From Octopus sinensis (taxonomy: Eukaryota), in contig NC_042997.1 of assembly GCF_006345805.1 (NCBI RefSeq), positions 95,666,001-95,730,000 on the forward strand: a DNA stretch of 64,000 nucleotides, read 5' to 3'. Positions 50,960 to 55,715 of this stretch are shown here, in pieces (the first letter of the stretch is position 1; each line of letters begins with the position of its first letter). A program made the translations under genes and the position numbers. A model generated the notes under the pieces. The model saw only the letters and a list, made by a program, of their open reading frames with translations. It ran no database searches and was not told the origin of the DNA.

Positions 50960-51008
50960 ATTTTACATGTTTCGGTTCTTCTTGAAAAAACGAACCTTAT
51001 CAAAAATA
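50960..51008 (-). ncRNA. Type I minimal hammerhead ribozyme, U3-A8 variant
   Basis: Minus strand: ATTT-TTGATAA-GGTTC-gttttttcaagaa-GAACC-GAAAC-AT-GTA-AAAT. Confidence 0.7.
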
Positions 51009-51737
51009 TTTTTAAAAGTTAAGTATAATAAAAAACTTCATAATTGTTTCTTACTGGTCTCAACAGAATCTACGTTGTTGTTTTTAGCTCTCTGATGTGC
51101 CCGAATGATCAGCGGCTGAAATGGCAGTGGCAGCAGTGACTGTTGGTCGTAGTAGTAGTAACCGTGGTGGTGGTTGGGGTTGCAGCAGCTCATTGGTTGT
51201 AGTAGCTTAGCTGTGGCAGTAGCAGCAGCAGCAGTAGTGGGGGACTGTTGATCGTAGTAGAAATAGTAGTGACCATGGTGGTTGTAGTAGTAGTGATAGT
51301 AGCAGCAGTCGTGGTGGTTGTGGTAGAATTTCATTTTTTCTTTTCGGAAGACCAATGTATTGTTTTAATATTACTGGCTCAGGGTGTCCAACAGCTTACG
51401 AAAGAGGATGGCGGTGCATAAATCCCAAATTAGAAATCCTGAATAGAGGAAACTACCAGTCAGCGGACACATAGATAGATGTGCTTCAAATAAAAATCCC
51501 AAATTCACAACTTGCCCACTTTACAAATTCAGTGAGAGCGTAACCTTCACTCAACGCCAAAATAAAGAACTTTATTTCATTAGAAAATTCGGACCACGTT
51601 TGAACACCCTGGGCCAGTAATATTAAAACAATACATTGGCCTTTCCGAAAAGAAAAATTCTATTCTACCACAACCTTCACGACTGCTGCTACTATCACTT
51701 TCTTTTAACTTTTTTATTACACTTAACTTTTAAAAAT

Positions 51738-51784
51738 ATTTTTGATAAGGTTCGTTTTTTCAAGAAGACCGAAACATGTAAAAT
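51738..51784 (+). ncRNA. Type I minimal hammerhead ribozyme, U3-A8 variant
   Basis: ATTT-TTGATAA-GGTtc...gaagACC-GAAAC-AT-GTA-AAAT; helix II is slightly degenerate. Confidence 0.65.
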
Positions 51785-53775
51785 TTCTAAGAAAATTAAA
51801 ATTTATCTTATATAATGGCGTTTTCAAACTTCTTTTTTATAAATATATACCCACTCGTATACGATCTACACTTATTATAAATATATATATATTATATATA
51901 TATATATATATATATATATAGTGTGGGTATCGTTTAGCGGAGTTTAATACCTCTAAGGGACAATTAAATGCAGAGTCGCTCCTGTTTATTTCCTGGGTAA
52001 GTACATTCTTTTGTAAGGTTGTACGGTAGCAGGTAGTTTGGTTGTTAAATCGAATTATATTTGGTATCCAATGAATTAAAGATATACCAACGAAAATCAC
52101 GAGCTTCCTAATGTTATTATTTCCATTTTCTTCTCATATATATATATACACACACACACACACACACACACACACATATATATATATATATATATATATA
52201 TATATATATATATATATATATATATATATATATATATATATATATATATATATATATATATGTATAGTGAAAGAGAGAGAGAGGGATAAGTATGTATGTA
52301 TTTTATTTTCTCTTAATTCAAAGTAAATTTTGACTGGACACCTGCTTGGTGTCAATGAGGTAAAGGAACGTATCTTCTTTTACTCCTTATCCTTTAAACC
52401 CACAAGAAGGTCTTGCAGATTTTTATCGTGATCAAAAGTAATGTATGAAGTAACGATTTGCATTCTCTCCCCAAGATCCCAAGTTCAATCATATTTTGCT
52501 CCAGACGACTTGGTATGTATGCGGTTGCTCCAATATTAATAATAGCTATGACGCTGAAAGTGTATCTTGGGCACAGGATTTTACAGATTCCTTGTCAAAG
52601 GTTCACAAGTGTCCTCTTTCTCTTGTATTTTTCTATGTATGTATGTGTGCATCCTATCGTAATCATAGGATACATGGGAAACGTGCTTTAATGCCTGTGA
52701 ACCTCTGAGTTTATCCCTGCGTATACCATTAGGTAACTATCTCCATTCACATATATACAACTCTCATTTATTTCGTTTTACGTTTCTTTATTTCTCTTTG
52801 TTTAAAAATTCCCCCTAGACACATGCTTATGCACACATACATATACATACTTATAGATTCAATAGATGCAAAATGAGACATCTGAAATAACCACTTCCAA
52901 AACACTCACTTTTCAAAACAGAAGAAAATAAATCGTTTTATTCTTATTTATTTTATTATTCGGAAAATATTCAGCTACATGTATATTTTGTGTAAAAGGG
53001 ATTTAAGGAGTAGGGGTCGAGAATTTACTGAAGTGAATGGCAAATTCCTTTTCTATGGAGTCACTTATATTCAAATAATATTGTTGTTATTAAAAAAGAT
53101 ATTTATCCGTAAGACTTTTGCACAAGATACGCAACCGATGTTAGCACAATGTTACCTACATTTCCAAATGCAAACAGTTCCCAAATAAAGCATAAAGAGA
53201 GAAAGAATAAGAGATATAAGAAAGGAAAGGAAATAAAGGGAAGAAAGGTGCCGGAGGGGTAAAAGAGCGGAAGAAGGAAGAAGAGGGATATATGGGCAAC
53301 ATATCTCAGAATAAACTGTGTGCTCAGGCGTTCCCTGCAGCAATGGCTTCTTTGGTTTTGCAACGGAGAATGGTCACTCACTACAGCAGCCACTCAACTT
53401 CTCGGGTCTCATTTCCCAGACACATCGTCGTTATCTTTATCTTGCTTGGGAAATCGACAGTACCAGGTCCTAGACTACTTGACGTCTCGACAGTGACCGG
53501 CACAATTTTATAGCAGCCGGCCAGGCCTCCATATTTACTGATCTTTCTCACCTCTGCGTTACGGGTGGTAACACGGGTTTGCAGCTGATGCTGCCAGATT
53601 CACATAAAGCAAAGTCAACTCTAGATTTTTAAAGTAACTTATCTATATGTTAAAATATATATAATTTTCTATAAGGAATTATTATGTTCAATGCATGAAA
53701 GAAACGAAAGCGCTAAATAAATAGTTTGTTATCCAAATCCTGACTACCAACTTTGTCTTAATATATAAAATCTGA

Positions 53776-53945
53776 AGGCGGCGAGCTGGCAGAAATGTTT
53801 GCACTCCAGGCGAAATGCTTAGGACGACTTTGCCTTTCATCCTTTCGGAGTCGATAAATTATGTACCAGTTGAGTTCTAGGGCCGATCTAATCGACTAAC
53901 TCCTCCCCACAAATTTCGAGCCTTGTGCCTAGAGTAGAAATGAAT
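53776..53945 (+). mobile_element. SINE family A with internal deletion
   Basis: aggcggcgagctggcagaaatg...gactttgcctttcatcctttcggagtcgataaattatgtaccag...ccttgtgcctagagtagaaa. Confidence 0.88.
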
Positions 53946-54129
53946 ATGTAAAATATGTACACCACTTCAAACCTTCTTTGTATGTGTATTTATGTATTTG
54001 TGTGTTTGTGTGTGTGTATGTGTGCGTGTGTGCGCGTGTGTATGTATGTATGTATGTATGTATGTATGTATGTATGTGTATATATGTATGTGTATATATA
54101 TATATATATATATTATATATATATAATAT

Positions 54130-55715
54130 TAATTAGAGACAAAACCACTATTATGCAAATCAAACAAAGAAAGACTTAATCCATACATAAAAAATTTTAT
54201 ATAAATTAATAAATTAATATATATATATAATATATATATATATTATATATATATATATATATATATATATATATATTATATATATTTATAATAGAGTAGA
54301 TCGTATACGAGTGGGTATATATTTGTAAAAAAGAAGTTGAAAACGCCACTATATCAGATAAATTTTAATTTTCTTCTGAATTTTACGTTTCGGTTCTTGA
54401 AAAAACGAACCTTATCAAAAATATTATAAAAAGTGCAATGGAAAAGTTCATAATCGTTTCTTACTGGTCTCAATAGAATCCATGTTCTTGAAAAAACGAA
54501 CCTTATCAAATATATTATAAAAAGTGCAATAGAAAAGTTCATAATCGTTTCTTACTGGTCTCAATAGAATCCATGTGGTGGTGTTTTGTCGGTAGTTGGT
54601 ATAATCGCTATATTACTGTTGAGTGTATTGAAGAAGTCCATTATTGTTTCTTGCTGGTATCAAAAGGAACCGCTTTTTTGTTTCCTTGTGTTCCAATGGT
54701 AGCAACAGTAGTGATTGTTGGTTGTAGTAGTAGTAACCTGTGGCTGTTATTGTTGGTCGTAATTTTGGCAACCTTGGTGGTGGTTGGGGCTGTAGCAGTT
54801 AAGCTGTGGCCGTGGCAACAGCAGCAGTAGTAGAGGACTGTTGATCGTAGCAGCAATAGTGGTCTGTTCACTGGCACTGTTCACTGACGTCACATAATTC
54901 CAACCCAATCATAACCAAACTTCAACGAATACAAGGAAAAGACCCATAACTGTATCCTGTAAGGAAACCAACCAAGCAGAACGACAAGCTTGACCACGGA
55001 AGAAAAACGTCATCAATTTTTTAACGAATCACAATCAGATCTGCTCGCAAAAAAATTTTTTTTTATAAATTCATCTTTCCCTAAAACATACCACTGCAAG
55101 CGGGAGTGACTGTTTAAAGATCTGAGAAATTGTAATTCCCCCCACCACCACCCTTTTTTTACTATTTTAATTCTCACACTGTGGCCGTAGCAGCAGAGGG
55201 CTGTTGATCGTAGCAGCAATAGTAGTGACCACGGTGGTTGTAGTAGTAGTGCTAGTGGAAGCAGTCGTAGTGGTCGTGGTGGTTGTGGTAGCAATTGATT
55301 CATCATCTATTTGTTTGCCATGAAATTCCTCGGTAAGTCTTAGTTTCCTACAAAATTCCGAAATATCATCTTTCATTTCATAGTAATTGGAACGTTGTGG
55401 GGTTGATGTAATTTTAAGTCCTTTGGAGAGTATGCTTATTTCTCTATTGAGAACAGTAAGAAACGATTATGAACTTTTCTATTGCACTTTTTATAATATA
55501 TTTGATAAGGTTCGTTTTTTCAAGAACATGGATTCTATTGAGACCAGTAAGAAACGATTATGAACTTTTCCATTGCACTTTTTATAATATTTTTGATAAG
55601 GTTCGTTTTTTCAAGAACCGAAACATGTAAAATTCGGAAGAAAATTACAATTTATCTAATATAGTGGCGTTTTCAAACTTCTTCTTTACAAATATATATA
55701 TATATATATATTTAT
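54130..55715 (-). mobile_element. Internally deleted Penelope-like element with inverted pseudo-LTRs (same family as 50910-51880)
   Basis: Arms 54320-54575 and 55442-55715 are reverse complements. Minus strand 55447-55295 gives NREISILSKGLKITSTPQ...EMKDDISEFCRKLRLTEEF (the PLE N-terminal LSKGLKFxPTP...FxRxLRL motif). Confidence 0.9.
55589..55633 (+). ncRNA. Type I minimal hammerhead ribozyme, U3-A8 variant (best-preserved copy)
   Basis: ATTT(55589)-TTGATAA(55593-99)-GGTTC-gttttttcaa-GAACC-GAAAC(55620-24)-AT-GTA(55627-29)-AAAT. Confidence 0.72.

Follow-up and report, generated by a model that had tools for sequence, protein, structure and literature searches.

Hammerhead motifs with a U3-A8 core in Penelope-like elements and tandem repeats of an octopus genome

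Described U3-A8 hammerheads and the motif copies of the window

The minimal hammerheads carried by Penelope-like elements (PLEs) are the closest described relatives of the motifs analyzed here, which lie in a 64,000-nt stretch of Octopus sinensis DNA (contig NC_042997.1, positions 95,666,001 to 95,730,000; hereafter the window) and have U and A at core positions 3 and 8. In the parts of the literature available to us, monomers of PLE minimal hammerheads do not cleave and dimers cleave weakly (PMC4209133; reviewed in PMC6765202), positions 3 and 8 pair, and the U3-A8 form is said to be active in vitro, after an earlier study (PMC3088659). About 1,300 U3-A8 PLE hammerheads were described in Schistosoma mansoni (Cervera and de la Pena 2014; PMC4209133). 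These Cercyon elements share with ours the core covariation and the element class, contain mostly single motifs and were missed by the first descriptor; however, their U3-A8 motifs are heterogeneous and form a minority beside about 2,000 C3-G8 minimal motifs, whereas U3-A8 is estimated to make up most of the class counted here, and their helix II has 7–8 bp preceded by an extra base, as opposed to 4–5 bp, no extra base and a 2-nt loop III in ours. The small-palindrome PLE hammerheads of Drosophila virilis Penelope, rotifers and shrimp (PMC4209133) are also type I, with a 2-nt palindromic helix III insertion, a short helix I and the same dimer model, but they are C3-G8. Natural U3-A8 hammerheads with the same covariation appear, in the part of Perreault et al. 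(2011; PMC3088659) that we could consult, as several scattered examples, in contrast to the thousands of transposon copies found here. The variant, which the initial annotation of the window had called a rare natural covariant with a possibly uncatalogued cephalopod family, is thus already published as a large Schistosoma family, and the window finding is an addition to a catalogue; relative to PMC4209133 and PMC3088659, what stands out is its scale, the retrozyme-like U3-A8 arrays and a family with a U3.G8 wobble. The literature searched, of limited coverage, contained no report of U3-A8 PLE hammerheads in cephalopods (Lunse et al. 2016/17 may list cephalopod or U3-A8 cases) and none of U3.G8 hammerheads or related terms.

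Four motifs were found where the initial annotation had placed them, to which we add two partial copies. The intact copy of subfamily A, on the forward strand at 55589–55633, has the layout of a minimal type I hammerhead: helix I at 55589–55592/55630–55633, core U3 to A9 at 55593–55599, helix II at 55600–55604/55615–55619, GAA at 55620–55622, a palindrome at 55623–55628 and A as N17 at 55629, 3' of which cleavage is predicted. As RNA, it reads as a 4-bp helix I, a UUGAUAA core, a helix II of 5 bp with G10.1-C11.1 as its closing pair, GAA and ACAUGU, and helix II forms with a pair probability of 0.85–0.86 in the monomer fold. Helix I is pairable though predicted to be unstable, and helix III is palindromic. 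The core departs from the literal CUGANGA...GAAA...NUH at positions 3 and 8, where it keeps a Watson-Crick pair (U-A) and matches the published U3-A8 variant. The second intact copy (subfamily B, reverse strand) has a loop II longer by 3 nt and spans 50960–51007, one base less than first annotated (51008). Small decays had been noted in two of the four copies. One is seen at 51738–51784 (subfamily B, forward strand), where the 3' strand of helix II has lost one A; at 54380–54422 (subfamily A, reverse strand), the AT of loop III is deleted and a 4-nt palindrome, ACGT, remains, which corresponds to the published minimal form rather than to clear decay. The partial copies consist of the core and helix II without GAAA at 55498–55527 (forward strand), within a 91-bp tandem duplication, and of its inverted partner at 54484–54513 (reverse strand), likewise without GAAA. 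Exact matches accounted for 6 of 11 12-mer hits in the window, and the remaining five, with two mismatches, are at chance level. An extended distal helix I spotted by eye in subfamily A was dropped, as other subfamilies do not keep it. The expectation that standard searches miss the variant was supported by an Rfam scan of window positions 45000–64000, run without a C3-G8 positive control, whose 70 matches at E<=10 comprised no hammerhead family and only microsatellite noise.

The best explanation of these data, to which we give a probability of roughly 0.72, is that the motifs at the PLE 3' ends are minimal type I hammerheads in which U3-A8 replaces C3-G8 and which would cleave as dimers 3' of GUA.

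The parent element and its two insertions

Searching the genome (G000, 2.72 Gb) at the DNA level yielded 1,487 candidates, 40 of which were scored. From these, 30 loci were retrieved, and each of their 33 motif rows is U3-A8, in a set biased toward the closest copies. In longer copies (L031, L034, L049 and others), the motif follows an open reading frame (ORF) encoding reverse transcriptase (RT) and a GIY-YIG endonuclease; with Pfam, the L031 and L034 ORFs score above the cut-off for GIY-YIG and below it for RVT_1 (E 5e-6). Their homologs at E<=1e-20 number 368, the best being 55% identical, and have the same RT and GIY-YIG domains; the few named animal ones come from oysters and Argonauta. 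Two homologous proteins of PLE type, P0026 and P0077, are filed under assemblies of the bacterial symbiont Candidatus Thiodiazotropha, and likely represent host DNA in bacterial bins.

The element shows the hallmarks of endonuclease-bearing (EN+) PLEs, that is, a single ORF with RT and C-terminal GIY-YIG, 5' truncation, an inverted 5' copy and a one-sided tail, and its PLE origin, as first annotated, is established. The tail is present in 41 of 99 motif copies examined, the motif lies about 60 nt from the PLE 3' end, and the commonest distance from N17 to (TA)n is 62 nt (34/99 copies). The near-full-length copies examined (L034) have the inverted form, and a direct-tandem pseudo-long terminal repeat upstream of the ORF was not identified for the window family. 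Translations of the longer copies contain a C-x4-C-xx-C linker before the C-terminal GIY-YIG and two cysteines within the latter, which agrees with the CX2-5CxxC linker and CCHH features of the Neptune and Nematis clades in the available part of PMC8557442. Other features shared with these EN+ PLEs, as given there, are a GxKF-type N-terminal motif, DKG, RT, microsatellite targets, an inverted 5'-truncated copy and a one-sided tail. By the sequence features listed in that part of PMC8557442, the window family is classified as a Neptune- or Nematis-type PLE.

Two insertions, 50890–51871 and about 54290–55703, carry the window motifs, each made of two outward-facing 3' ends within (TA)n. In insertion 1, comparison with L034 by blastn delimits an inverted, 5'-truncated arm (50890–51391, reverse strand), reduced to 3' untranslated region (UTR) with an internal deletion and a (TA)n end, and a main arm (51390–51849, forward strand) with the endonuclease end, a 3' UTR lacking ~470 nt, the hammerhead and the 3' end, followed at 51850–51871 (forward strand) by a one-sided 3' tail typical of PLE insertions, and then by (TA)n. 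Translation of 51390–51620 (forward strand; 89% DNA identity to L034 5156–5447) gives a broken GIY-YIG C-terminal piece with one internal stop. The main arm of insertion 2 (54290–55442, reverse strand) fuses an N-terminal ORF piece to the 3' UTR, the duplication, the hammerhead and the 3' end; about 2.1 kb are deleted between the ORF start and the 3' UTR, and the tail lies at 54294–54315. The ORF piece (55289–55442, reverse strand), recognized by translation and by 94% DNA identity to L034 3169–3323, covers the GLK(F/I) motif region. The segment 54864–55178 was judged by eye to resemble the 5' region in opposite orientation, with no blast match. The inverted, 5'-truncated arm (55443–55703, forward strand) with its (TA)n end was defined by inverted-repeat comparison and blastn to L034. 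Complementarity between the arms of insertion 2 reaches 99% over 182 nt, and both contain the 91-bp duplication.

On this sequence evidence, the window copies are dead remnants: the endonuclease end is interrupted by a stop, the ORF start runs directly into the 3' UTR, and the UTRs have deletions. Reading the inverted arms as a miniature inverted-repeat transposable element or DNA transposon was ruled out, since they are retroelement 3' ends with RT/EN pieces; nor are the window elements retrozymes, as ORF pieces lie inside them and the 91-bp duplication is without the full motif. Because each insertion consists of two arms that repeat one another almost exactly in inverted orientation, the four motif copies represent only two independent events. 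The shared core of the four copies was overstated in the initial annotation as a sign of selection: copies descending from one ancestor are expected to share it.

Conservation and spread of the U3-A8 core

Evidence of constraint comes instead from the genome-wide comparisons. Exact 33-mers of the family occur 142 times in the genome and never in the reversed control, and a looser family pattern gives 845 matches against 8. With helix II fixed as in subfamily A, position 3 deviates in one copy (C3.A8) and position 8 in four (3 G, 1 C), compared with the 142 exact copies; the family helix II combined with G8 gives 18 matches, namely 17 U3.G8, one of them from another family, and one C3-G8 (L139), which was rejected as a revertant lineage, its C sitting on an inversion junction. 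By sequence, U3-A8 is the state of the family and not the result of decay, as first annotated.

Eight subfamilies were defined by loop II, and their commonest letters were compared over 118 rows, leaving out rows from 23 loci picked by decay patterns and seven unclassed rows. Only one of 31 motif positions varies among them, N17, which is A or U, both allowed, as against 51 of 54 flank columns (unaligned, so that indels inflate the figure); the 13 positions that the 845-match pattern did not specify are all invariant. Inside the four invariant helix II pairs, loop II is 7 to 15 nt long, and the fifth pair is the only one to change, from C-G to U-A in subfamily E and to a lost pair in F. In subfamilies E and F, the ORFs are degraded and show 59–68% identity to that of A. 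Among contigs of four runs representing four coded organisms (82% likeness cut-off; one run with only 4 contigs), no difference at positions 3 or 8 reached 5%; the PLE end and the 362-bp unit described below are both represented in contigs from presumed-RNA runs, which, having no silent control, are neutral on expression.

This radiation extends well past the single family first annotated. A protein search of the genome with an outside homolog found two further PLE families by protein alone and, in total, three sister families are 53–66% identical in protein to the window family, all with U3-A8 and with different helices. In the ACCGGU family (54–57% identical), the motif lies ~175 nt past the stop, with a 7-bp helix I and a 2-bp helix II, and five of seven rows are U3-A8, the other two, from one insertion, being C3.A8. 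The U.U family (53–55%) has U3-A8 in 15/15 loci, about 2.1 kb downstream, with 6 bp in helix I and a U.U mismatch at 10.1-11.1, where helix II starts; in its loci (L370–L384), the motif lies ~1.3–2.5 kb after the endonuclease in a 2-kb microsatellite-like 3' UTR, and the start of the tail is common to this family and the window family. The fourth family (66%) is U3-A8 with GGUC/GACC as helix II. Compensatory changes in helices I, II and III are seen across families, so that the helix II covariation proposed as a check is found at this level. N17 is A, C or U in the families selected by protein as well. The four families form one clade, with a support of 98.7 by Shimodaira-Hasegawa-like approximate likelihood-ratio test (21 rows, unlabelled or redundant rows left out) and 0.973 by FastTree (all 45 rows), in a midpoint-rooted tree whose relatives are unlabelled and include no named reference elements. 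U3-A8 has persisted through the radiation of these families. Given this root, the sequences are most simply explained if it was ancestral to the clade and derived from C3-G8.

If the ribozyme were dead and both changes simply descended from a single master copy without constraint, the sharing within a family would also be accounted for, as the copies of one family have a common ancestor and C-to-T and G-to-A changes are common. However, the motif is invariant despite diverged loop II, flanks and protein (down to 53–66% identity), and helices are compensated across families, so that this scenario is already largely refuted and very improbable. That the motif is conserved between subfamilies as well as between sister families indicates selection acting on it, and supports the initial proposal of a selected motif on grounds other than the four window copies.

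To what extent U3-A8 dominates the genome was estimated from two patterns with positions 3 and 8 free. The ACCGGU pattern gave 5,286 matches (control 7), the first 100 listed, tallied by eye, being 95 U3-A8, 4 U3.G8, 1 C3-G8 and no C3.A8. A pattern with TA, GC, TC or GA in loop III gave 2,370 (control 106), with 84 U3-A8, 13 U3.G8 and 3 C3-G8 among the first 100 listed, 98 of which have a self-complementary loop III although non-palindromes were allowed. All four types of self-complementary dinucleotide are in use, which is the covariation expected from the dimer model. C3-G8 patterns allowing an extra base gave 329 (control 9) and 295 (control 202) matches. Extrapolation from the first 100 listed, which rest on the start of one contig, leads to an estimate, for motifs with a 6-nt palindrome and with the U.U family omitted, of about 7,700 U3-A8 against about 400 C3-G8; C3-G8 may be commoner among 4-nt palindromes, which lie outside this census. 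U3-A8 thus appears to be the main form in the genome, in several families, and a census restricted to CUGANGA would overlook the greater part of the class counted, by an estimated 19 to 1.

The core is not confined to ORF-bearing elements. Two arrays, L359:2484–4566 and L360:1855–4336 (G000 C1 near 104.185 Mb and 28.193 Mb), consist of 5.8 x 362 bp and 6.9 x 363 bp, with a motif in every unit and no ORF found. The unit hammerhead is a U3-A8 type I with a 6-bp helix I, GGGG/CCCC as helix II and ACGCGU; the arrays have a PLE-like inverted 5' copy and (TA)n flanks and represent the commonest family among the first 100 matches to the TA/GC/TC/GA pattern. Tandem units each with a hammerhead are the mark of non-LTR retrozymes, which by sequence these arrays look like. 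Compared with animal non-LTR retrozymes, in the accessible parts of PMC7229834 and bioRxiv 10.64898/2026.07.22.740005, the repeats share the 6-bp helix I and 4-bp helix II, and their size resembles the 350–390 bp of mussel retrozyme repeats; by contrast, their cores are U3-A8, U3.G8 or C3-G8, variants that those parts do not mention for animal retrozymes. A head-to-tail joint of the unit in contigs would not be specific to circular RNA, as tandem DNA also yields one.

Other repeats combine several core states. One lineage includes both Watson-Crick states, C3-G8 (L344, L348, L385–L389) and U3-A8 (L321, L322), and L322 and L344 are 89.5% identical over 401 nt. In a 31-unit tree, 17 C3-G8 rows are nested among U3-A8 rows, which suggests a reversal, although only three U3-A8 rows from two insertions are concerned and some flanking DNA was aligned. 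A multi-copy wobble family (L336, L350, L352–L357) has U3.G8 with a C.A mismatch in helix I, and includes L358, which is U3-A8; L350 and L358 are about 92% identical, U3.G8 occurs in 9 of the 11 rows of the lineage, and the family makes up 13 of the first 100 matches listed for the TA/GC/TC/GA pattern. Separately, the multi-copy U3-A8 motifs of L289, L294 and L308 have only one canonical pair in helix II but 7 bp in helix I, which is broken in L289. In L058–L083, a C3-G8 family, one extra base precedes the 6-bp helix II, no helix I lies in register, and no ORF was found.

We consider it possible, at somewhat less than even odds, that most small hammerheads of this genome have changed to U3-A8, in autonomous PLEs and retrozymes alike, and that elements which went on spreading preserve the full compensatory path of a catalytic base pair, from C3-G8 through fixed U3.G8 to U3-A8 and back to C3-G8. 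Thousands of ribozymes would then be invisible to CUGANGA searches, and natural matched scaffolds would be available on which to test whether cleavage rate matters for PLE transposition. A related view, in which U3-A8 is positively favored in the host for lowering the cleavage rate so that full-length template survives, would fit its prevalence in two element types, ORF-bearing PLEs and ~360-bp repeats, and the composition of related metagenome loci selected by protein, in which a motif was found in 12/36, ten C3-G8 and two U3-A8 (shuffles <=0.01 per class). However, C3-G8 families coexist in the same genome, a C3-G8 subfamily groups within U3-A8 copies, and the excess can be explained by shared ancestry and A+T mutation pressure without selection, which makes this view improbable. 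The two U3-A8 metagenome motifs (L191, L205) follow related PLE ORFs on separate branches and have a short helix I; their positions suggest independent origins, for which they are candidates only.

Proposed mechanism, and other repeats of the window

The reading of these motifs as dimer-cleaving hammerheads leads to the following scenario. U3-A8 would have been fixed once, in the ancestor of the clade, through a U3.G8 wobble; the swap would have been roughly neutral, compensatory and helped by an A+T-rich genome. Purifying selection would then have maintained the fold, with slow dimer cleavage of tandem transcripts freeing the RNA for transposition: two motifs in one tandem transcript would pair through the palindrome and be cut 3' of N17, and the PLE protein would copy the freed RNA into (TA)n targets. 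Circles were proposed in PMC4209133. Since insertions retain the whole motif and about 62 nt beyond it, the downstream motif of the template would have to be uncut or re-joined.

Several points weigh against this reading. In the window family, helix I has just 3–5 A-U pairs and, in the monomer fold of 55589–55633, a pair probability of 0.01, and the first four helix II pairs are invariant, which leaves them without covariation within the family. Low in vitro activity was published for PLE minimal hammerheads (PMC4209133). Core positions were built into most search patterns, which introduces ascertainment. Families with a 1–2-bp helix II, U.U at 10.1-11.1, or U3.G8 with a mismatched helix I were also amplified, helix I is one base out of register in many copies of the ACCGGU (GC) family, and both arms of one insertion (L277) are C3.A8; amplification of such marginal-helix, wobble and C3.A8 copies implies that strong catalysis may not be needed.

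Much of this would equally be expected if a hammerhead-derived motif were kept as a structural or protein-binding 3'-end signal, for the PLE protein or for RNA dimerization, with little or no cleavage. The weak helix I, the amplified families with marginal helices and U3.G8, and the uncut motif of inserted copies all fit such a signal, PMC4209133 allows functions other than cleavage, and Naiad PLEs spread without canonical hammerheads, according to the part of PMC8557442 available. What is held, however, is exactly the catalytic core and the NUH rule, and positions 3 and 8 change as a pair across lineages; N17 is never G and, although the search patterns excluded G, the protein-selected families comply as well. 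We therefore regard a non-catalytic signal as unlikely, though less so than the other alternatives. Whether cleavage matters for success in transposition can be tested directly on the natural pairs found here (C3-G8 versus U3-A8 at 89.5% identity, U3.G8 versus U3-A8 at about 92%), together with the families whose helices are very weak.

Elsewhere in the window, another inverted repeat (62234–62400/62582–62748) has arms of 167 nt that are 99% complementary, spaced by 181 nt, and adjoins (TA)n. Degraded ORF pieces at 58810–60308 and 44360–44692 resemble, by eye, proteins of non-LTR retrotransposons, and a 169-nt direct repeat occurs at 59666 and 61127.

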